DNA of 52,770 nucleotides from Phage PEA2-3: sequence record MW508890.1. The stretch is one strand, 5' to 3'. Below are positions 5,650 to 47,773 of this stretch, piece by piece. A program made the translations under genes and the position numbers. Numbering within the stretch: the first letter of the stretch is position 1; each line of letters begins with the position of its first letter. The notes beneath the pieces were generated by a model. That model did no database searches, was not told the DNA's origin, and saw nothing but the letters and a program-made list of their open reading frames with translations.

Positions 5650-6555
5650 ATGACTACAGTATTTGACCGCAGCGGTAAAGCACACGAAGCTCTGGGTTTT
5701 GTTATCTGTGTTGACGAGGGAAACACTTCCCTGTTGACGCAGGGCAAAGTGTATGCCAACCTAGGTTCTTTCGGCGGGGCTTACGATAACTTATGGGTAA
5801 TCGACGACCGTGGTCTGAAGCAGAACTTCAGCGTTGACCGTTTCGCTAAGTACGAATCTGAAAAACACAACTGGGGTATCGCTCGCCGTTCTTACGCTAA
5901 CCTGAAAGAAGGTAAGCTGTATCGTGTTGAGAAGAATCGCCCTGGTGTTCGTTCACTGGATGGCACTAATCAGATTGCATGCGTGGATGAGACCGGTAAC
6001 TGGCTGACATACAATGAAGACGTCTTCCGTCTGTGCCGTCCGTCTCATTCCGAACAGTACATGGTTGCTAAGCTCAAAGCGGCTGCACCTGTCAAGAACA
6101 CTGCAATCAACTTCAAAGTTGAGGAAGAAGTTATTGCAGACGACAAACTGAAGTTTGTTGGTGTTAAGTTTGAACCGAATGGTCGTGTGTACACTTACAA
6201 GTACATCGGCAAAGTAAGTGTAGGGGACAAAGCGGTTGTTGACGTTCGCAATGTTAACTATCCGGAGCTGAACGGTACCAAGCTCGTTGATGTTGTGTCT
6301 GTAAGCGCCGCCAATACTTCTGGCTACAACACTGCAACTCTCAAATGGCTGGTTGATGTGCCTGACTTTAACAAGTATCAGCGTCGTCAGCAGGTTGAAG
6401 ACTTACTGCGTGAAGCGTCAGCACGCCTCGACCTGGAAGTTGAGAAAGAACTGGAACGTCGTCGTCAGACAGTTGTTGCTGACCTGGCAGCATCTAACCC
6501 GGACATCAAAGCACTGCTCGATGGTATCGCTGCATTGAAAGCAGAACTGCTGTAA
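5650..6555 (+). CDS. Hypothetical protein with C-terminal coiled-coil-like region
   Basis: 301 aa, RBS aagga upstream; C-terminal charged heptad-like stretch (EDLLREASARLDLEVEKELERRRQ). Confidence 0.5.
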   Translation: MTTVFDRSGKAHEALGFVICVDEGNTSLLTQGKVYANLGSFGGAYDNLWVIDDRGLKQNFSVDRFAKYESEKHNWGIARRSYANLKEGKLYRVEKNRPGVRSLDGTNQIACVDETGNWLTYNEDVFRLCRPSHSEQYMVAKLKAAAPVKNTAINFKVEEEVIADDKLKFVGVKFEPNGRVYTYKYIGKVSVGDKAVVDVRNVNYPELNGTKLVDVVSVSAANTSGYNTATLKWLVDVPDFNKYQRRQQVEDLLREASARLDLEVEKELERRRQTVVADLAASNPDIKALLDGIAALKAELL

Positions 6556-8939: not shown

Positions 8940-9425
8940 ATGCAAAAGAAGAAGATGGACAAGTGGGACAGGCGGTTTATGCGCATAGCTTGTGAAGTTG
9001 CGAGCTGGTCGAAGGACCCGAAACGTCAAGTCGGTAGCGTTCTTGTGGACCAGAACAAGCGTATTATTTCCACTGGATATAATGGTCTACCTACGCAGTT
9101 AGACTCTATAAGAATAGTGCCTAATAGCCTTAAGAACGCTCTAACTATTCATAGCGAGATAAACACCTTAGCTAATATAAGGAGTGAGTTAGACACTCCT
9201 TCATTAGGCCCGGTTACCATCTACATAACATACCCGCCGTGCGAACATTGTGCAGACATGCTGATAGCCAACCTTAACCTGGTACGTGTAGTTGCATTGG
9301 CACATACAGCTTCTCAATCCAAATGGAAGGATAGCATGGCAAATGCCGTCGCCCACTTGTGGGCTCATAATATTGTGTACGATGAATTCAGCGTTGAGGA
9401 GTTTAACAATGCCAAGTCCGTTTGA
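8940..9425 (+). CDS. dCMP (deoxycytidylate) deaminase
   Basis: Zinc-binding deaminase signature HSEINTL ... PCEHCA; about 160 aa. Confidence 0.75.
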   Translation: MQKKKMDKWDRRFMRIACEVASWSKDPKRQVGSVLVDQNKRIISTGYNGLPTQLDSIRIVPNSLKNALTIHSEINTLANIRSELDTPSLGPVTIYITYPPCEHCADMLIANLNLVRVVALAHTASQSKWKDSMANAVAHLWAHNIVYDEFSVEEFNNAKSV

Positions 9426-13365: not shown

Positions 13366-13400
13366 AAAAGGACCAGTTAACGCTGGTCCTTTTTATTTTT
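13366..13400 (+). terminator. Strong intrinsic terminator
   Basis: aaaa-ggaccag-ttaacg-ctggtcc-tttttattttt; A tract upstream and T tract downstream, so possibly bidirectional. Confidence 0.75.
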
Positions 13401-13418
13401 ACCAGAAGCGTAAAAAGT

Positions 13419-13450
13419 GCTTTACCACTAGAGAGTGATGTGGTATAATA
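13419..13450 (+). promoter_or_regulatory. Promoter-like element (AAGTGG-N-TATAAT family, copy 4)
   Basis: tttaccac - 17 nt - tataat with upstream tgg (extended -10-like), ahead of gene 13476. Confidence 0.5.
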
Positions 13451-13475
13451 AGTTATCTTTTAGAGGAGAGATACA

Positions 13476-13874
13476 ATGAACCTACAACGTGTTGCTGAAG
13501 CTTATTACAGGATTTGGATACTTCGGCTAGAGGGCCAAATCGACTACGTGAACACCGTCGGCCGCGAAGATTACTTGCCTGCATCTTCTTTCCAGGAAGT
13601 ATGCAACATTGCTCAAACTCTTGAACATGAATTTGATAAAGTCAAGTTTACACGCGATGTGCAAACAAACTTTATCAAGTTTGAAACAACCATGCGCTGT
13701 AAATTCCCGTTTATCAAGCGCATATCCCGTACCGGCCTTTTCATTGTTCCCTTTCCTGTGGGTAAAGAACGTTGGGACACTTTAGAACAGGCTCGTCATA
13801 TTATCTGGTCTACAGAAATTAAGCGTAAGTTTATCGAAACTGTTTGTAAGGAGTTACGAAATGCGATTCAGTAA
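13476..13874 (+). CDS. Hypothetical protein
   Basis: 132 aa, RBS agaggagagatacaatg. Confidence 0.5.
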   Translation: MNLQRVAEAYYRIWILRLEGQIDYVNTVGREDYLPASSFQEVCNIAQTLEHEFDKVKFTRDVQTNFIKFETTMRCKFPFIKRISRTGLFIVPFPVGKERWDTLEQARHIIWSTEIKRKFIETVCKELRNAIQ

Positions 13875-14454
13875 AATTGCTGCAGGCGTTACCGCTTTTC
13901 ATGAGAAGTTTGACCTCAAGCCTGTTAGTCAAGGCGGTAAACCTGAGTTCAAGCTTCGTTACGACCGTCTTATTGAGGAGATGGAAGAAATTAAACAAGC
14001 TAAGAAGGACGGCGACAAAGCTGGCTTCTTAGATGGTATTGTAGATTTAATTTACATTGCCGCAGGTACGTTATACTTGTATGACCAGACTGCATGGTTC
14101 ACCAACGAATTTGAGTATCCGATTCTGTTAACTACGCCATGCGGATTTATGGACCGCTTCGATGCTGACGGCCTTATTGTATATGTTAAGGATACTGAAG
14201 ACACTCATTGCGACCGTCTGGCCCAGTTAATTATCCACCTGATTACCTGGTGTGCAAACAACAACTGGCCACTTGACGCAGCATGGGATGCGGTACAGGC
14301 TGCTAACATGGCGAAAGAACGCGCTAAGCCTGATGCAAGCAACAGCAAGCATAAGTCTGGTCAGGATATTGTTAAGCCTGAAGGATGGAAAGCACCTGAC
14401 ATCCAGGCCATCATCGACGCACACGTTAACCCGGCTCAAAAGGAACTGTTTTAA
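13861..14454 (+). CDS. MazG-like all-alpha nucleoside triphosphate pyrophosphohydrolase
   Basis: R..LIEEMEEI ... DGIVDLIY and C-terminal AANMAKERAK resemble the MazG/HisE EExxE...D and K...R pattern; RBS taaggag. Confidence 0.55.
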   Translation: MRFSKIAAGVTAFHEKFDLKPVSQGGKPEFKLRYDRLIEEMEEIKQAKKDGDKAGFLDGIVDLIYIAAGTLYLYDQTAWFTNEFEYPILLTTPCGFMDRFDADGLIVYVKDTEDTHCDRLAQLIIHLITWCANNNWPLDAAWDAVQAANMAKERAKPDASNSKHKSGQDIVKPEGWKAPDIQAIIDAHVNPAQKELF

Positions 14455-15338
14455 TGAAAACATACAGCACTGTCGATTCTCTTTACAGCGACATCATTTC
14501 TTTTATCCTGCGTAAAGGTGAGGATGTTGTAGACCGTACAGGTGTTGGTACCCGCCGTTGTTTTGGTACAGCATTTAAGCTGGCTTTCAACGACAACAAA
14601 CTGATGGTGCCGGTGTTTAAGCCTGTTAACATCAAAGCTGTTGCTGCTGAGCTTTACTGCTTTATCAACGGTATTTCAAACGTCGACACGCTAAAAGGCT
14701 TTGGCTGCAACTGGTGGGAAGGTAACCTACAGGACGCAAACAAACGTTGGGGTACGCCAGACAACCGTGACTTAGGTCCTGTGTACGGCGTGCAATGGAT
14801 TAAGCCATTCTATAAGAATGGTGTTCTTACTAACCAGCTTAAAGATGTTATTGAAACGCTGAAGGTTAAGCCTACTGACCGCCGGGCGTACATTACGGCA
14901 TGGAACCCACAAGAGATGGACGCCATGGCCCTTCCGCCTTGTTACCATGGTTTTCAGCTGTTCATTAACAACCGTAATGAATTAGAGTTGATGTTCCACA
15001 TGCGTAGCGCGGATGTTATTCTTGGCCTGCCTCACGATATTCTGTTGCATCAGATGTTGCAGATTACCATTGCTGCTGAGCTGGGTACTGGGGTAGGTGA
15101 TATGACTGTTACGCTGGGTGATTATCACATCTACCAGAATCATATCGATGCGGCAAAGATTTTCCTGCAACGTATCGTAAGCAATTCTGATACTACACTG
15201 GACACTAACTTTGAAGGTCGTCCTGACATTAACGCAATTTATGACGTGTCAGTGTTTGACTTCACTCCTGCCGATGTTACGCCAATGGTTGAGAAGTACA
15301 AACCAATGCCAAACATCAAACTCCAAATGGCCGTATAA
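14454..15338 (+). CDS. Thymidylate synthase (ThyA) family enzyme, probably a dCMP C5-methylase or hydroxymethylase
   Basis: Aligns by eye to ThyA: DRTGVGT, DLGPVYGVQW, AWNP, catalytic Cys in ALPPCYH, MRSADVILGLPHD, GDYHIYQNH; the conserved PFNI Asn position is Asp (PHDI). Confidence 0.7.
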   Translation: MKTYSTVDSLYSDIISFILRKGEDVVDRTGVGTRRCFGTAFKLAFNDNKLMVPVFKPVNIKAVAAELYCFINGISNVDTLKGFGCNWWEGNLQDANKRWGTPDNRDLGPVYGVQWIKPFYKNGVLTNQLKDVIETLKVKPTDRRAYITAWNPQEMDAMALPPCYHGFQLFINNRNELELMFHMRSADVILGLPHDILLHQMLQITIAAELGTGVGDMTVTLGDYHIYQNHIDAAKIFLQRIVSNSDTTLDTNFEGRPDINAIYDVSVFDFTPADVTPMVEKYKPMPNIKLQMAV

Positions 15339-15344
15339 GATGGA

Positions 15345-15366
15345 GCGGGGCTTCGGCCCCGTTATA
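15345..15366 (+). terminator. Terminator-like hairpin with UUCG loop
   Basis: gcggggc-ttcg-gccccg; stem identical to the hairpin at 8901. Confidence 0.45.
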
Positions 15367-15368
15367 CT

Positions 15369-16364
15369 ATGAGCAAGTTTAACTATGACACCAAACAAAT
15401 ACAGACTGCCGTTCAACAAGCTCGTCCCATCAAGTATACTGATAGTGGTCTTATGGGCAAAATATGGATTGCAGACGGAACAATCCATTCATACTACAAG
15501 AACGTATTACTACGAGCGCCATGTAAAGGATTTCCAGACCTGCAAGTGGATGCTGAATCATTTCGTAAGGCCGTTAATGCGGCAAGAACTGAACAGATTA
15601 CTTTTAACATTACAGCCGCTGGAAACCTCACAGTCACAGCAGGTGTACTTAAAACAAGAATGCAAGCGCTTAATGAACCAATACCGCCGCTTGCTACAGT
15701 TAACAACTGGTATTCAGCGCATGGCGAATTGCTCCCGGTATTAACTGCCTTAGCCAAATGGGTACCTAACGAAGCACCGCAGGTATGGGCAACATCTTTA
15801 CTTCTGCGCGATGGTTATGCTTACGCCACCAACGGTAAGTATATGATACGTGAGAAGCTGAACGTAGATTTTGAATTTGAATGTGCCATAGCCAAACCAA
15901 TGCTTGAGGCTCTGGTTAAGCTGAAGATGGAACCCACAAGTGTAGGTTACGCCCGCGGCCAGATGTTCTTCGGCTTTGCGGATGGTGTACAGATGGATGC
16001 CCCGGTACTTGCAGCCAAATGGCCAGACGTATCGAAGTTCTTCAATATGGAAATGGATATGCAGGCCATCACTCCTGAGTTCCTGGAAGTCATGGACCAG
16101 CTTACTGGGTATGACGAAGGTCAAGCCATCCTGGAGATAACAGGCGAGTCAACTGCAAAGGCAGACTTACCAGATAAGATTATTCCAAAGATGTCCGTCG
16201 ACATTAAGTTCCAGTCGACTAAGTTTAGTAAACCGTTCAACTGTGTTATTAGTCAGATGAGTAAACTGGCTAAAGGCATGGAAAGAATAGGACTGGGTAG
16301 TCAGGCGCTCAAAATGGAAAACTCAACTCGTACAGTTGTAATTGCGTATGTTAGAGGGGACTGA
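15369..16364 (+). CDS. Hypothetical protein upstream of DNA polymerase
   Basis: 331 aa; stop overlaps the polymerase start; any processivity role is speculation. Confidence 0.45.
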   Translation: MSKFNYDTKQIQTAVQQARPIKYTDSGLMGKIWIADGTIHSYYKNVLLRAPCKGFPDLQVDAESFRKAVNAARTEQITFNITAAGNLTVTAGVLKTRMQALNEPIPPLATVNNWYSAHGELLPVLTALAKWVPNEAPQVWATSLLLRDGYAYATNGKYMIREKLNVDFEFECAIAKPMLEALVKLKMEPTSVGYARGQMFFGFADGVQMDAPVLAAKWPDVSKFFNMEMDMQAITPEFLEVMDQLTGYDEGQAILEITGESTAKADLPDKIIPKMSVDIKFQSTKFSKPFNCVISQMSKLAKGMERIGLGSQALKMENSTRTVVIAYVRGD

Positions 16365-18331
16365 TGAGCTTTTTATTCGATAGCTTCGAAGGTGCAAAGA
16401 ATGTTAAACCTATCAACCGTCCTATACCATACGTCAGGGATACTGGATGGAGGCCGCGCGCGCATTACCCGGACTTGTCTTCTGCAAAGATTATCGGTCT
16501 TGACTGTGAAACATACGACCCAGGGATGGATACAAATGGTAGTGGTTGGGCCAGGAGGGAGGGTCATATCGTTGGAGTTAGTATCGCTACGGACAACGGC
16601 TTCAAAGCTTACTACCCAATCAGACACGAGCTCGGCGAAGAGGATAACCTTCCAGCTGAGGAAGTACTTGGTTGGCTTCGGCTCGAACTCTCGCGACCTA
16701 ACCAAGTTAAAGTCGGTGCTAACATCACATATGACTTGGGCTGGCTTGCAGCAGAAGGCGTGGAAGTTAAAGGATTGTGCATGGATGTACAATTCGCGGA
16801 AGCATTACTTGACCCAGGCGCGCGTGTTGCACTTGAAGGACTTGGACGAAAATATGTAGGCGAAGGTAAAGACTCAGCCGAGATGTACCAATGGATTTCA
16901 GATGCTTATGGCTGTAAGCCAACAGGTGAAGCCAGAAAGTACATCTACAAAACGCCTCCTCGTCTTGTGGGTTACTATGCTGAATCTGACGCCGACTTAC
17001 CAATACACATTATCAAAGCCCAGTGGCCATTGTTAAGTCGCTGGTGTTTAACAGACGTATTCTATATGGAGTGCAAGCTCATTCCATTAATGCTTAAGAT
17101 GCGTTTTGCTGGTGTGCGTGTTGACCTTGACAAAGCCAAAGAGGCGGATGATACGCTTAGCGCTGAAATAAGGAAAATGCACCAGCAGATTAAAGACCAG
17201 ATTGGCTTTAACATTAACGTTAACTCAGGTCCGGACTTAGCTCTTGCATTTGACCATCTTGGTCTGGAGTACTTCAGAACAGCGGCGGGCAATCCGTCGT
17301 TTACGGCAGACTTCTTAGCAGGCTTACACCATCCGTTTGCGGAACTGGTGTCTGAGATTAAGTCTTATGAGAAAATCCAGTCCACGTTTATTCGTGGCTA
17401 TATATTGGGGATGAATACAAATGGCTTCCTTCACGGTCAATTCCATCAAATGCGCGGTGATGACGGTGGAACCGTTAGTGGTCGGTTTAGCTCATCTGAC
17501 CCTAATCTGCAGAATATACCGTCTAGACACAAAATACTGGGACCACTCCTTCGTGCTTGTTTCGTACCGGATGTCGGACACAGATGGGGATCAGCAGACT
17601 ACGCCCAAATTGAATATCGATTCATGGCGCATTTTGCAGTCGGCCCGGGCGCTGATGAGTTACGAGCAATTTTCGCGGCTAACCCGGAAGCAGATTACCA
17701 CAATGTTATGGTCGATATTATCAAGGAAGCCTCAGGTCACGTTATAGAACGTAAACCGGCTAAGACCATCAACTTTGGTTTGTTGTACGGCATGATGCTT
17801 AATGCTCTTGCCCGTAAGTTAGCAATGACGCCTGAAGAAGCAGAACCTGTTCTGAAGGCGTACCATCAGGGTGCACCATTCATTGGTGCTACCATGAAGC
17901 ATTATGAAGATTTATGTTATAGCCAGGGTTATGTAGAAACCTTTATGGGCCGGAAGACGTGGTTCAACAAATGGGTCCCAAAACGTGGTGGATTCGGGAA
18001 GATGCCTTTGCCATTTGAAGAAGCACGTCAGGAGTATGGTCCAAACATTAAACTGGCAGACACCCACAAAGCAATCAACCGAGTGCTGCAAGGGTCGTCA
18101 GCAGACCAGATGAAGTCTGCAATGCTGAAAGGGTATGAAGACGGTTACTTTGACGTGATTGGCGTACCTCGCCTGACGGTACACGATGAGCTTAACTTCT
18201 CTCTACCAACTGGTAAGCAAGCAGAAGATGGATTCTATGATTTCGTACGGGTCATGGAAACTGTGCTACCGCTTCGTGTACCTGTTCTTACTGATGCTAA
18301 GATAGAAAGTAACTGGGCAGAGGCACACTAA
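16364..18331 (+). CDS. DNA polymerase, family A (Pol I-like) with 3'-5' exonuclease-like N-terminal region
   Basis: Motif A DYAQIEYR, motif B RKPAKTINFGLLYGM, motif C VHDE; N-terminal DCETYD and YYAESDADL exo-like motifs. Confidence 0.9.
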   Translation: MSFLFDSFEGAKNVKPINRPIPYVRDTGWRPRAHYPDLSSAKIIGLDCETYDPGMDTNGSGWARREGHIVGVSIATDNGFKAYYPIRHELGEEDNLPAEEVLGWLRLELSRPNQVKVGANITYDLGWLAAEGVEVKGLCMDVQFAEALLDPGARVALEGLGRKYVGEGKDSAEMYQWISDAYGCKPTGEARKYIYKTPPRLVGYYAESDADLPIHIIKAQWPLLSRWCLTDVFYMECKLIPLMLKMRFAGVRVDLDKAKEADDTLSAEIRKMHQQIKDQIGFNINVNSGPDLALAFDHLGLEYFRTAAGNPSFTADFLAGLHHPFAELVSEIKSYEKIQSTFIRGYILGMNTNGFLHGQFHQMRGDDGGTVSGRFSSSDPNLQNIPSRHKILGPLLRACFVPDVGHRWGSADYAQIEYRFMAHFAVGPGADELRAIFAANPEADYHNVMVDIIKEASGHVIERKPAKTINFGLLYGMMLNALARKLAMTPEEAEPVLKAYHQGAPFIGATMKHYEDLCYSQGYVETFMGRKTWFNKWVPKRGGFGKMPLPFEEARQEYGPNIKLADTHKAINRVLQGSSADQMKSAMLKGYEDGYFDVIGVPRLTVHDELNFSLPTGKQAEDGFYDFVRVMETVLPLRVPVLTDAKIESNWAEAH

Positions 18332-18346
18332 TTAAAGGTCTATAAT

Positions 18347-18622
18347 ATGTCTAAGATAGGTTTAGAGTATGAAGTAGATGAAACGCTTAAGTTAAGGGCG
18401 AAGGAGATACTAGACGCCTCAGGCTGCACGTCAGGCCTGGACTGGTTTATGAAGATATTCCAGGAAGAACCAGAAGCTGTTGCCAAAAAGATTTACAAGA
18501 GTGATATTTTACGACAGGATATTCCTGTGCTGTGCTTCCAGATACGTGGCGAGGATGATTACTGGACGCAACAGCTATGCGATGAATTAGAAACCCTGTA
18601 TTGTGAAGAAGAGGGAAAATAA
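18347..18622 (+). CDS. Hypothetical protein
   Basis: 91-aa acidic ORF. Confidence 0.4.
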   Translation: MSKIGLEYEVDETLKLRAKEILDASGCTSGLDWFMKIFQEEPEAVAKKIYKSDILRQDIPVLCFQIRGEDDYWTQQLCDELETLYCEEEGK

Positions 18623-45616: not shown

Positions 45617-45907
45617 TTAGGCCATTTCTACCAGAAACGGGAACCATTTACCTTCGAAGTAACCGCGTTCATCTACAAGAAAAGGCATTACTTCTTTTCC
45701 GTATTTAATAACGTTTTCGTCGGCTATGGTTGTGATAGCGTTGTACAGGTGAGTGCACATCGGATGTTCGCTATGGCCTCCGTAATATGCAATCTGCCCG
45801 TTGTGGGTTACAGCAGGTTTGCCTGCTACGAATTCATCCCAGCTAAAAGGCTTAGCTTCCGCCAAGCCGTTTACTTCAGGATGTTCGACCATATCGAACA
45901 GGTCCAT
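45617..45907 (-). CDS. Hypothetical protein
   Basis: 96-aa ORF; stop/start overlap with the upstream gene. Confidence 0.4.
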   Translation of the reverse strand: MDLFDMVEHPEVNGLAEAKPFSWDEFVAGKPAVTHNGQIAYYGGHSEHPMCTHLYNAITTIADENVIKYGKEVMPFLVDERGYFEGKWFPFLVEMA

Positions 45908-46608
45908 CAGATTACCCCTTCCATAGCATCCATATGCTTACGGATAAAGTTAAGACGATCTGCCAGGTCGTCTGCACGACGTTTTTCAGCGTCACGCTGG
46001 GCAATAAGCGCTTTACGCTCTTCGCTGAAAGCACGGTTATTAGCAATAGCTGTACCATTAAGGCTACGAATCTCAGCCTCATACTCTTCAGCACGTTTGC
46101 CCATCAGTTGCTGCAGGTCGTTAATCTGTCGCTTATAGGCAGTGATAAGCTCAGACGCATCTTTATTGCAGCTTTCCAGTTTGCAGATATGCTCCTGCAG
46201 CATCTGTACATGTGCCCAGCCTTTAGCAATTTCGCGAGCTGACATATCAGCTAACATACGGTCTGACATAGGAGCGCCAGCGTAGTTTGAGGCCTTGCAC
46301 AAGTACCAGTTTAGAGCACTACTGAACATCTCACCAGTACGATATTCCAGCTCATCGTTGAACTTTTCAATTTCATCGCCAGAAGTCGCAATACTGATGC
46401 TGTGTGGACATCCTTCGACGTTAATTTCAATGCTGACGCCTTCAGTACCAGTCACTTCGTTATCTTCAAGAGCACGTTTGGCCAGGCGCAGCAGGTCTTC
46501 ACCTGACAGGTTCGGGTTAGTTGAACCCACAGTAACAGTTTTGTTGACGTCTCCTACGGTTGCTGACAGTGTGATTGAGGTATTGTATACTGGGCTCATT
46601 TGTTCCAC
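45907..46608 (-). CDS. Hypothetical protein with C-terminal coiled-coil-like region
   Basis: 233 aa; C-terminal charged helical segment. Confidence 0.4.
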   Translation of the reverse strand: MEQMSPVYNTSITLSATVGDVNKTVTVGSTNPNLSGEDLLRLAKRALEDNEVTGTEGVSIEINVEGCPHSISIATSGDEIEKFNDELEYRTGEMFSSALNWYLCKASNYAGAPMSDRMLADMSAREIAKGWAHVQMLQEHICKLESCNKDASELITAYKRQINDLQQLMGKRAEEYEAEIRSLNGTAIANNRAFSEERKALIAQRDAEKRRADDLADRLNFIRKHMDAMEGVI

Positions 46609-47102
46609 TCCTTATTAATACGTTCGTTGATGTATTCGAGAACTGCTTCAGGACCGTCTTCTTCAACAGTCCAGTCGTAAATGAAGAACTGCTTACTCAT
46701 CATAACCAGTTCGTCAATGAGGTTGTCATACTGATTGTATAACGCCTCAAGATTTTCCACAACACCAGGCATTTCGTCTTTTGTAGTTGCCAGTACCTTT
46801 TCAACAGGCGGCATACAAAAGATAACGATAGCGTTGCCACACATATCTGCTACATGTGATACATTAATATTGATGACAGGCGTACGTTGAAGAACCAGGC
46901 AATAGATATACTCAGATATAACAGCGCTACGGTCATAAATGCAATTGCCTTCCAACGCGTTTTCTTTGGCCTGTTTAGCCATGACCGATTCGGGGTCCTT
47001 ATCAACAGTATTATGAATAACGCTGCGGCCAGTACGAGATTTAAGGAACTCAATAAGTGTAGATTTACCAGCATTGTCGGGCCCCTCGATTATGATGTTC
47101 AT
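46596..47102 (-). CDS. dNMP / thymidylate kinase-like P-loop kinase
   Basis: N-terminal MNIIIEGPDNAGKSTLIEFL matches the Tmk P-loop pattern; 168 aa. Confidence 0.65.
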   Translation of the reverse strand: MNIIIEGPDNAGKSTLIEFLKSRTGRSVIHNTVDKDPESVMAKQAKENALEGNCIYDRSAVISEYIYCLVLQRTPVININVSHVADMCGNAIVIFCMPPVEKVLATTKDEMPGVVENLEALYNQYDNLIDELVMMSKQFFIYDWTVEEDGPEAVLEYINERINKEWNK

Positions 47103-47773
47103 TTGTGTAAACTCCTGTACCGTTGTATCAGAACTTGTTTGTTATCAACATATTCATCATTATAAGTGAAGTCGCTATCAATGTACATCATTAATTTGCT
47201 ACGATCCATTAAAATATCACTTGGACCTGATTGCTTGATTGTACTGATAAACATGTTGTCGATACGGAGTAAGTCTTTTGCGTGTTCTTCAAGGGCCGAA
47301 AGTATCAACTCGGCACCACCTACAATCCAGACGTCAGTACCTCTGGATTCAAGGTCTGCTGCCATCTCACCCAGATTATTGTAGCCTTCTGAAGCCATAA
47401 TCTGGCGAGATACCGGCAGCAGTATTCTGTGGGCTGACATAGGCAGACTCATAGTCATATACGTATTACGACCGGCTAACAATACGCTATGCCCGACCAT
47501 TTTTACCGTTACATCTGCTATCATATTTCGCAACTGGTCATTTGGGAATTGTCCACGTAGTTGCTGATATGCATTATAGCCTGGTTCTGTCGCAATTGAA
47601 TTAGTCATAGTCCTGAAAAAGAGCATGTCTGACGGACATTTCCATGGTAGACCCGATTTAGGAAGCGCACGAACCTCTTCCATGGTCTTGCACGAGTCAA
47701 CCTGATGCTTCATAAACTCCGGAGACAACCCGAATTCCCCATTTTGGCCCATTGCGAAGATTATATTAATCAC
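47099..47773 (-). CDS. folA: Dihydrofolate reductase
   Basis: Aligns by eye to DHFR: MINIIFAMGQNGEFG, LPWKCPSDMLFFRTMT, VLLAGRNTY, VWIVGGAELI; longer than bacterial DHFR (an insertion). Confidence 0.7.
   Translation of the reverse strand: MINIIFAMGQNGEFGLSPEFMKHQVDSCKTMEEVRALPKSGLPWKCPSDMLFFRTMTNSIATEPGYNAYQQLRGQFPNDQLRNMIADVTVKMVGHSVLLAGRNTYMTMSLPMSAHRILLPVSRQIMASEGYNNLGEMAADLESRGTDVWIVGGAELILSALEEHAKDLLRIDNMFISTIKQSGPSDILMDRSKLMMYIDSDFTYNDEYVDNKQVLIQRYRSLHK

Follow-up and report, generated by a model that had tools for sequence, protein, structure and literature searches.

What reaction does a phage-encoded thymidylate synthase homologue catalyse when the residue that reads uracil is not the usual asparagine? 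The question is raised by a gene of Phage PEA2-3 (MW508890.1), of which a stretch of 52,770 nucleotides, hereafter the window, was analysed. The window is essentially the complete genome (52.8 kb) of a myovirus in the genus Rosemountvirus. Its identity to phage BP63 is about 98%, and the region around the gene (13400-18400) has 97-99% identity to BP63, UPF_BP2 and brunost, which are Salmonella phages, and to swi3, JEP7 and SD350, which are E. coli phages. The gene is the following:

14454..15338, plus strand: ThyA-family enzyme, predicted deoxycytidine monophosphate (dCMP) C5-methylase (5-methyl-dCMP synthase), 294 amino acids, ATG start.

An earlier note on this DNA had read the protein as a dCMP methylase or hydroxymethylase. 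The residues of its pocket, Leu143 and Asp169 (E. coli numbering), its C-terminal tail and the set of genes that accompanies it all support a dCMP C5-modifying enzyme and narrow the prediction to a methylase.

Membership of the ThyA family, which the note had assigned by eye, is borne out over the full length of the open reading frame (ORF). The ORF matches Pfam PF00303 (Thymidylat_synt) with an E value of 2.3e-62 and 211 bits (cut-off 24.3), residues 11-294 covering profile positions 3-266 of 266, a full-length superfamily match; solved thymidylate synthases (TS) in the PDB are matched at E about 1e-40 and PHROG 160 at E 2e-80. An AlphaFold2 model built from 27 sequences (mean predicted local distance difference test score 92.1, predicted template modelling score 0.90) finds human and mouse TS as its best PDB matches in Foldseek (template modelling score 0.82-0.85), and on this model the protein has the thymidylate synthase fold. 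It is the sole TS homologue of the genome. The gene is present in 55 phage records at 60% identity or above, ZCSE2 among them, and all annotated records that we inspected label it thymidylate synthase or hypothetical protein, the former label probably because the ORF also scores 172 bits with the NCBIfam equivalog TIGR03284, above its cut-off of 108.

Three independent alignments underlie our assignment of the specificity residue. In a HMMER local alignment without gaps, the query segment 'RSADVILGLPHDILLH' lies on ThyA 'RSADLFLGVPFNIASY', which makes Asp195 the counterpart of E. coli Asn177; HMMER likewise pairs 'HMRSADVILGLPHDILLH', without gaps, with bacterial ThyA 'YQRSADLFLGVPFNIASY', and MAFFT alignments including E. 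coli ThyA again put Asp195 in the Asn177 column. The Asp that had been noticed here is thus confirmed, and comparison with ThyA, T4 gp42 and the enzymes of phages Xp12 and PaMx74 likewise gives Asp, not Asn, at the specificity position. The proposed catalytic Cys of ALPPCYH stands as well, Cys163 ('ALPPCYHGFQ') aligning with E. coli Cys146. The Tyr that follows had been taken for an extra residue (PCYH versus PCH); since 'PPCYHGFQLF' aligns with 'PPCHAFFQFY' without a gap, the insertion is rejected in favour of two substitutions, His147 to Tyr and Ala148 to His. The codons concerned are these:

14931..14945, plus strand: Leu160-Pro-Pro-Cys163-Tyr164, that is Leu143 (kept), the catalytic Cys146, and His147 replaced by Tyr (alignments; signature rules from PMC6400193 and PMC13326640).
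15000..15014, plus strand: Met183-Arg-Ser-Ala-Asp187, that is Gln165 replaced by Met, the phosphate-binding Arg166 and Ser167, and Asp169 (kept) (residue table).
15036..15038, plus strand: GAT codon of Asp195, at the substrate-specificity position E. coli Asn177 (alignments).

A single G-to-A change would turn the last of these into an Asn codon. In E. coli numbering, the query and the clade of its relatives defined below differ from canonical ThyA by six pocket changes (H147Y, Q165M, F176H, N177D, Y181H and A182Q), and keep Arg21, Glu58, Trp80, Trp83, Tyr94, Arg126, Arg127, Leu143, Cys146, Arg166, Ser167, Asp169, His207, Tyr209 and the C-terminal Met-Ala-Val. The superfamily residues (Cys146, Arg21, Arg126', Arg127', Arg166, Ser167, Glu58, Tyr94, His207 and Tyr209) are all present in the query. 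The clade also has an eight-residue insertion of its own, GNLQDANK (residues about 90-97, window 14700-14760), between Trp80 and Trp83, both residues of the folate site, and in relatives a second insertion, of variable length (0-23 residues), follows residue about 120.

In canonical TS, Asn177, oriented by Gln165, reads O4 and N3-H of uracil. E. coli ThyA and all nine canonical ThyA relatives aligned (9/9) have both residues; the query has Asp195 and Met183 in their places, and Tyr164 where canonical enzymes have the His147 that adjoins the catalytic Cys. T4 gp42 and RB69 gp48 share the Met of the query at position 165, where Xp12 and PaMx74 have Leu, and Xp12 and PaMx74 share its His at position 181. 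Mutagenesis of the two model enzymes, as it is cited in later papers, agrees with the note's statement that an Asn-to-Asp change shifts specificity to dCMP: E. coli TS N177D and L. casei TS N229D switch to methylation of dCMP and lose their preference for deoxyuridine monophosphate (dUMP) (cited in PMC8670742, PMC13326640). Its further statement that T4 dCMP hydroxymethylase carries Asp at this position holds in our residue alignment, which includes gp42. In a metagenomic genotype-phenotype study, positions 177 and 147 were the two whose conservation differed most between TS homologues from cytosine-modified contigs and those from unmodified ones (PMC8670742); the two oddities of this protein, the Asp and the Tyr, thus correspond, at the level of sequence, to two known marks of cytosine-directed TS homologues. 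We consider it very probable that the enzyme uses dCMP as its substrate.

The specificity residue is conserved well beyond the window. A database search places the enzyme in a sharply separated clade of 31 clusters (E <1e-87, at least 50% identity), below which there is a gap in matches until canonical ThyA at about 37% identity. Asp177 is found in 29 of the 31 clusters, which range from 50 to 99% identity, in the reading LGLPHDI, and is therefore neither a chance occurrence nor a strain-specific variant; it was checked directly in ZCSE2 (Loughboroughvirus), whose enzyme is 73% identical and has the same CYHG, HMRSAD and PHDI motifs. In an exhaustive search over 1.84 billion representatives (clustered at 50% identity), the clade collapses into a single representative. 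Asp177 occurs in 36 of the 150 nearest ones, always together with Leu143 and Asp169 (36/36), and is associated with a residue other than Gln at position 165 (22/36 versus 27/113, Fisher p 7e-5, phylogeny uncorrected). Given this frequency, TS-like Asp177 enzymes are common in metagenomes, and the clade is one cultured, enterobacterial example of a type already known.

Does such an enzyme transfer a methyl, a hydroxymethyl or a hydroxyl group? Hydroxymethylases (T4 gp42, MilA) have Asp or Glu three residues before the catalytic Cys (Cys-3), where TS has Leu143, Ser or Thr two residues before the catalytic-base Tyr, Val for Trp83, and no C-terminal tail, and in the T4 enzyme the conservative change D145N abolishes activity (PMC6400193; PMC13326640). 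The TS tail seals the active site for hydride transfer, while a hydroxymethylase without the tail has an open, water-rich active site; dihydrofolate is made only by TS-type reductive methylation, hence the need for dihydrofolate reductase (DHFR) (PMC6400193). Finally, the 5-hydroxy-dCMP synthases RB69 gp48 and DLP3 gp80 are marked by D169N (PMC13326640). In the query we find Leu160 at Cys-3, Pro109-Val110-Tyr111 before and at the catalytic base, as in TS, Asp187 at position 169, and a tail that is conserved across the clade:

15312..15335, plus strand: TS-type C-terminal tail ...PNIKLQMAV (alignments; absent from T4 gp42 and RB69 gp48).

The hydride-transfer apparatus is thereby complete (Leu160, Trp88, Trp99, Asp187 and ...KLQMAV), and a DHFR is encoded though the genome has one TS homologue only. 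Because the hydride-transfer residues are kept and the marks of hydroxymethylases and of D169N enzymes are missing, the predicted product is 5-methyl-dCMP and not 5-hydroxymethyl-dCMP; all features that could be tested in the sequence point to methyl transfer, and the evidence favours a methylase.

The genes around the enzyme bear on the same question. Those of interest are:

13861..14454, plus strand: all-alpha MazG/PRA-PH nucleotide pyrophosphohydrolase, predicted deoxycytidine triphosphatase (dCTPase), 197 amino acids (Pfam PRA-PH E 1.9e-7; PHROG 671 E 1e-24).
15369..16364, plus strand: DNA polymerase accessory subunit (annotation of near-identical phages).
16364..18331, plus strand: family A DNA polymerase (annotation of near-identical phages).
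8940..9425, plus strand: dCMP/dCTP-deaminase-family protein, 161 amino acids (Pfam PF00383 E 3e-21).
47099..47773, minus strand: dihydrofolate-reductase-like protein, 224 amino acids (Pfam DHFR_1 29.7 bits, cut-off 25; PHROG 316 E 1e-25; PDB DHFR E 1.3e-4).
46596..47102, minus strand: P-loop deoxynucleoside monophosphate (dNMP) kinase, thymidylate-kinase-like, 168 amino acids (PHROG 761 E 4e-26; weak Pfam dNK and Thymidylate_kin).

The stop codon of the pyrophosphohydrolase overlaps the start codon of the enzyme (TAATG), the two genes being translationally coupled, and the polymerase genes (15369..18331) follow directly downstream in one gene string. The pyrophosphohydrolase is 38% identical (E 3e-11) to the 'hydrolase' that adjoins the TS of Xp12, and distant relatives have a homologue of it (41% identity) directly upstream of their TS homologue. 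The gene order deaminase, exonuclease, helicase, pyrophosphohydrolase homologue, TS homologue, polymerase subunit, PolA is retained in metagenomic relatives of 54-56% identity. The polymerase of distant relatives has DNA_pol_A Pfam matches; that of the window is 25% identical to its PaMx74 counterpart over 259 amino acids only, too low to inform. The deaminase-family protein is 33% identical (E 7e-23) to the Xp12 deaminase and may deaminate 5-methyldeoxycytidine (5mdC) nucleotides to thymidine nucleotides, a role taken by analogy from 10.1101/2024.12.05.627091; among solved structures its best match is 7fh4 (a CMP/dCMP-type enzyme of 142 amino acids, E 6e-11), followed by the human and T4 dCMP deaminases. 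The kinase shares an operon with the DHFR and is predicted to phosphorylate 5-methyl-dCMP.

The combination of PRA-PH/MazG, a deaminase-family gene and DHFR is the one found in Xp12 (in the order hydrolase, TS, dCMP deaminase, DHFR) and in PaMx74 (pyrophosphohydrolase, thyA, cd, frd), and is the genomic association expected of a 5-methyl-dCMP synthase. According to a preprint, Thymidylat_synt with Asp177, accompanied by PRA-PH, dCMP_cyt_deam_1 and DNA_pol_A, characterises cytosine-modified contigs; 5mdC is formed in vivo by the Xp12 TS homologue and by five of the seven metagenomic TS homologues assayed, and one linked deaminase turns 5-methyldeoxycytidine triphosphate (5mdCTP) into deoxythymidine triphosphate (10.1101/2024.12.05.627091).

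Distant relatives have a 62-amino-acid gene with a KilR domain between the polymerase accessory subunit and PolA (L008 11902-12090, L009 11869-12057), and this gene is absent from the window at the matching site (around 16364). A 233-amino-acid protein (45907-46608, minus strand) is encoded in an overlapping gene string with the DHFR and the kinase. Its N-terminal domain is conserved, an insert varies, the motif KGWAHVQMLQE is invariant and the tail is a coiled coil; within the genus the protein evolves fast. In phage SE4 it is labelled 'UDP-glucose 4-epimerase', which was judged spurious (no Rossmann motif, coiled-coil C-terminus, fast evolution), and the ORF is therefore no evidence for glycosylation.

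From these genes we infer the following pathway. The pyrophosphohydrolase, coupled upstream, would convert deoxycytidine triphosphate to dCMP, both clearing the canonical nucleotide and feeding the methylase. Cys163 would attack C6 of dCMP, the methylene group of methylenetetrahydrofolate (CH2-THF) would pass to C5, and a hydride would then be supplied by the folate, giving 5-methyl-dCMP and dihydrofolate, that is, the complete TS reaction with dCMP in place of dUMP. The phage kinase and the host nucleoside diphosphate kinase would raise 5-methyl-dCMP to 5mdCTP, which the phage family A polymerase would incorporate, while the phage DHFR would restore tetrahydrofolate and the deaminase-family protein would probably turn part of the 5-methyl-dC nucleotide pool into thymidine nucleotides. 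Virion DNA would then contain 5-methylcytosine (5mC) for most or all of its cytosine and resist restriction enzymes whose sites contain C. That 5-methyl-dCMP is the product and that 5mC enters the DNA is, on the sequence evidence, likely, if less so than the use of dCMP, and the phage probably swaps cytosine for 5mC to escape host restriction enzymes.

A restriction phenotype of this kind has been described in the sister genus. Of the enzymes tried on the DNA of the Loughboroughvirus S144, only SspI and PacI, whose sites are AT-only, cut it, and XhoI, EheI, Bsp120I, Cfr42I, NotI, MauBI and SspDI left it uncut whatever the growth host; its authors suggested that cytosine is modified, identified no gene for this, and gave the TS homologue the label of an ordinary thymidylate synthase (PMC7432712). 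The papers on BP63, swi3, the SPLA phages, vB_SenM-1, ZCSE2 and CF2 contain no restriction or modification data. According to a paper from 2025, the nucleotide-modifying repertoire of the Xp12 family is missing from both Rosemountvirus and Loughboroughvirus (PMC11946847), a statement that is qualified by the predicted functions of the gene set found here.

Could another gene account for a modified genome? Pfam and PHROGs scans of selected non-structural ORFs of at least about 90 amino acids found no gene for a DNA methyltransferase, glycosyltransferase, TET/JBP oxygenase or DpdA/deazaguanine enzyme. The same scans found a primase, an AAA_24 ATPase, a DUF669 protein and a PDDEXK nuclease; the exonuclease and helicase assignments are taken from the annotation of near-identical phages. 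The homologue of S144 ORF63 ('BAH, putative methyltransferase'), at 5650-6555 on the plus strand, was rejected as a DNA methyltransferase, having no Pfam or PADLOC match and a predicted fold other than that of a methyltransferase. Its 301 amino acids are predicted to form repeated Tudor/KOW/SH3-like beta-barrels and a 60-residue helix, with no significant structural match; its relatives have 300-439 amino acids, the differences in length being apparently N-terminal. As for the composition of the window, GATC is strongly avoided over its whole length (26 observed versus 157 expected under a maximal-order Markov model, z = -13), GATATC is missing (0 versus 12.3 expected), and other palindromes are only mildly depleted. 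The avoidance of GATC may reflect Dam/MutH, or GATC-cutting restriction that is not blocked by 5mC.

Three other explanations have to be weighed. The protein might be a working thymidylate synthase that converts dUMP to deoxythymidine monophosphate, or an enzyme of dual specificity, the Asp being tolerated and the DNA containing ordinary cytosine. Canonical ThyA is closest to it overall (34-39% identity, TS-like tail), the TIGR03284 cut-off is passed, the genome has no other TS homologue, two clade members carry Asn177, and related phages have been grown on E. coli K-12. We nevertheless find this unlikely: Asp is kept in 29/31 clusters down to 50% identity though one base change would restore Asn, six pocket residues (147, 165, 176, 177, 181, 182) have changed together, and the published Asn-to-Asp mutants, as cited, lose dUMP preference; moreover, a pyrophosphohydrolase coupled to the enzyme, together with a gene set like that of Xp12, is the signature of cytosine-replacing phages, and the DNA of the sister genus is refractory to GC-containing enzymes. 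It is quite unlikely that the resistance has some other cause, for instance a modified guanine or a post-replicative enzyme that has gone unrecognised, with the TS homologue making a different or novel C5 product or serving thymidylate supply only, through deamination of 5mdC nucleotides and with no 5mC reaching the DNA. All seven enzymes blocked in S144 have both G and C in their sites, many small ORFs are without annotation, the deaminase could in principle use up the 5mdC nucleotide pool, and TS homologues have already yielded one unexpected chemistry, 5-hydroxylation. Set against this are the lack of DpdA/queuosine-pathway, methyltransferase, TET and transferase domains in the Pfam and PHROGs scans of selected ORFs, the predicted fold of the ORF63 homologue, which is not that of a methyltransferase, and the case of Xp12, where this gene set yields complete replacement by 5mC and, at once, thymidylate (10.1101/2024.12.05.627091).

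A dCMP hydroxymethylase of the T4 gp42 type, which would give DNA with 5-hydroxymethylcytosine (5hmC), possibly further decorated, would share Asp177 and Met165 with the query and would fit the restriction resistance of S144 equally well, and several ORFs have no assigned function. Leu stands at Cys-3 where such an enzyme has Asp or Glu, a position at which the T4 enzyme does not survive even D145N; Pro-Val-Tyr replaces Ser/Thr-x-Tyr, Trp83 is kept, and the full TS tail is present, which gp42 and RB69 gp48 lack. In addition, a DHFR is encoded, for which a hydroxymethylase has no need, no glycosyltransferase or other hydroxyl-using transferase appeared in the scans of selected ORFs, and identity to gp42 is 21% only. 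We regard this explanation as very unlikely.

A number of observations also weigh against a 5-methyl-dCMP synthase that brings 5mC into the DNA. Two clade members, P0013 and P0020, on contigs of 1.6 and 1.0 kb, carry Asn177. They are nested in the Asp-bearing clade and combine Asn177 and Lys127 with Tyr147, Met165, His176, His181 and Gln182, which are kept. Their Asn177 could be a reversion to the use of dUMP, or an Asn freed to read cytosine in the absence of Gln165; clade members with Asn177 and Met165 may still accept dCMP, the Asn being free to flip once Gln165 is gone. The relationship to the verified methylase is distant: the query shares 34% identity with E. coli ThyA, 29% with the enzyme of Xp12, 23% with RB69 gp48 and 21% with T4 gp42, and in a neighbour-joining tree, a rough method used here without bootstrap, its clade adjoins canonical ThyA, with Xp12 and PaMx74 branching outside. 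Orthology to the Xp12 methylase is not found, and because of the 29% identity and the separate branch we infer function from residues, not from orthology. The Leu143 rule is itself imperfect, Xp12 and PaMx74 showing Asn, Gln or Leu there depending on the alignment, and of seven TS homologues predicted in a similar way, two gave no 5mdC when assayed in vivo (10.1101/2024.12.05.627091). The S144 data come from a sister genus and identify neither the base nor the modification (PMC7432712). Depletion of palindromes does not discriminate, with observed/expected counts of 557/620 for GC-containing 6-mers and 121/128 for AT-only ones. For phage CF2, at 97.6% identity, the recorded host is E. coli K-12 MG1655. 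This strain carries McrA, McrBC and Mrr, which attack 5mC DNA, and some evasion function would therefore be required. The CF2 paper gives CP9 as propagation host.

Rosemountvirus phages are used or proposed for biocontrol of Salmonella and E. coli, and one commercial product contains BP63 (PMC6783827). If their DNA were fully substituted with 5mC, the unexplained restriction resistance of S144 would be accounted for, and the annotation of all inspected records would need correcting; profile-based annotation cannot tell a dCMP-methylating activity from a true ThyA, as the TIGR03284 result illustrates. The substitution would also bear on host range, sensitivity to Type IV (modification-dependent) restriction, CRISPR and cloning work, base-calling and methylation analysis, and the phages would offer a model, tractable in E. 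coli, for 5mC replacement, of which the examples so far come from Xanthomonas and Pseudomonas phages and from metagenomes. Two database entries that match window 13400-18400 carry questionable labels: PP583539.1, 'Listeria phage 220426122051', is 97.7% identical to the Salmonella/E. coli phage of the window and its host label is probably wrong, and KY608966.1, phage CF2, is filed as Tequatrovirus yet has a 53-kb Rosemountvirus-like genome.

How does the enzyme compare with known systems? Those of Xp12, whose DNA is fully 5mC (10.1101/2024.12.05.627091), and PaMx74 share with it Asp177, a hydrophobic residue for Gln165, His for Tyr181, Asp169 and a C-terminal extension, and are flanked by genes that the window also carries, for a pyrophosphohydrolase (38% identity to that of Xp12), a deaminase (33% to that of Xp12) and DHFR. 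In contrast, identity is only 28-29% and the neighbour-joining branches are separate; position 147 is Tyr in the query and Pro in Xp12 and PaMx74, and position 176 His and Tyr, respectively; the canonical ...MAV tail is retained in the query, as is Trp83, which is Phe in Xp12. The deaminase gene, adjacent in Xp12 and PaMx74, lies 5 kb from the TS homologue in the window, and the phage is a 53-kb enterobacterial myovirus, while Xp12 and PaMx74 are siphoviruses of Xanthomonas or Pseudomonas. It is possible, though doubtful, that Rosemountvirus and Loughboroughvirus are the first cultured E. coli/Salmonella phages with full 5mC replacement, by a ThyA lineage that became dCMP-specific independently of that of Xp12 through the pocket set Tyr147/Met165/His176/Asp177/His181/Gln182; this would also require an unknown means of escape from McrA, McrBC and Mrr, since close relatives are recorded on E. 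coli K-12.

T4 gp42 resembles the query in the Asp at the specificity position, Met165, the catalytic Cys, Glu58, Tyr94 and the phosphate-binding arginines, and the logic of the T4 pathway likewise includes a dCTPase and a dNMP kinase; it differs in having Asp145, Ser94, Val85 and no tail, against Leu, Pro/Val, Trp and a tail in the query. RB69 gp48 and DLP3 gp80 share Asp177 and the His-Met-Arg-Ser motif, but have D169N, L143E and no tail where the query has Asp169, Leu143 and a tail (PMC13326640). The TS homologues of MetaGPA 'predicted 5mdC' contigs have the same Asp177 together with PRA-PH, dCMP_cyt_deam_1 and DNA_pol_A (PMC8670742, 10.1101/2024.12.05.627091), and sit on uncultured contigs, whereas the query comes from a cultured phage. 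Finally, in the engineered E. coli TS N177D and L. casei TS N229D (described in 1992 by Hardy and Nalivaika and by Liu and Santi, as cited in later work), a TS scaffold with Asn changed to Asp methylates dCMP. To this single change the query adds H147Y, Q165M, F176H, Y181H, A182Q and the eight-residue insertion between Trp80 and Trp83, and in its sequence it resembles a natural, optimised version of the same experiment.

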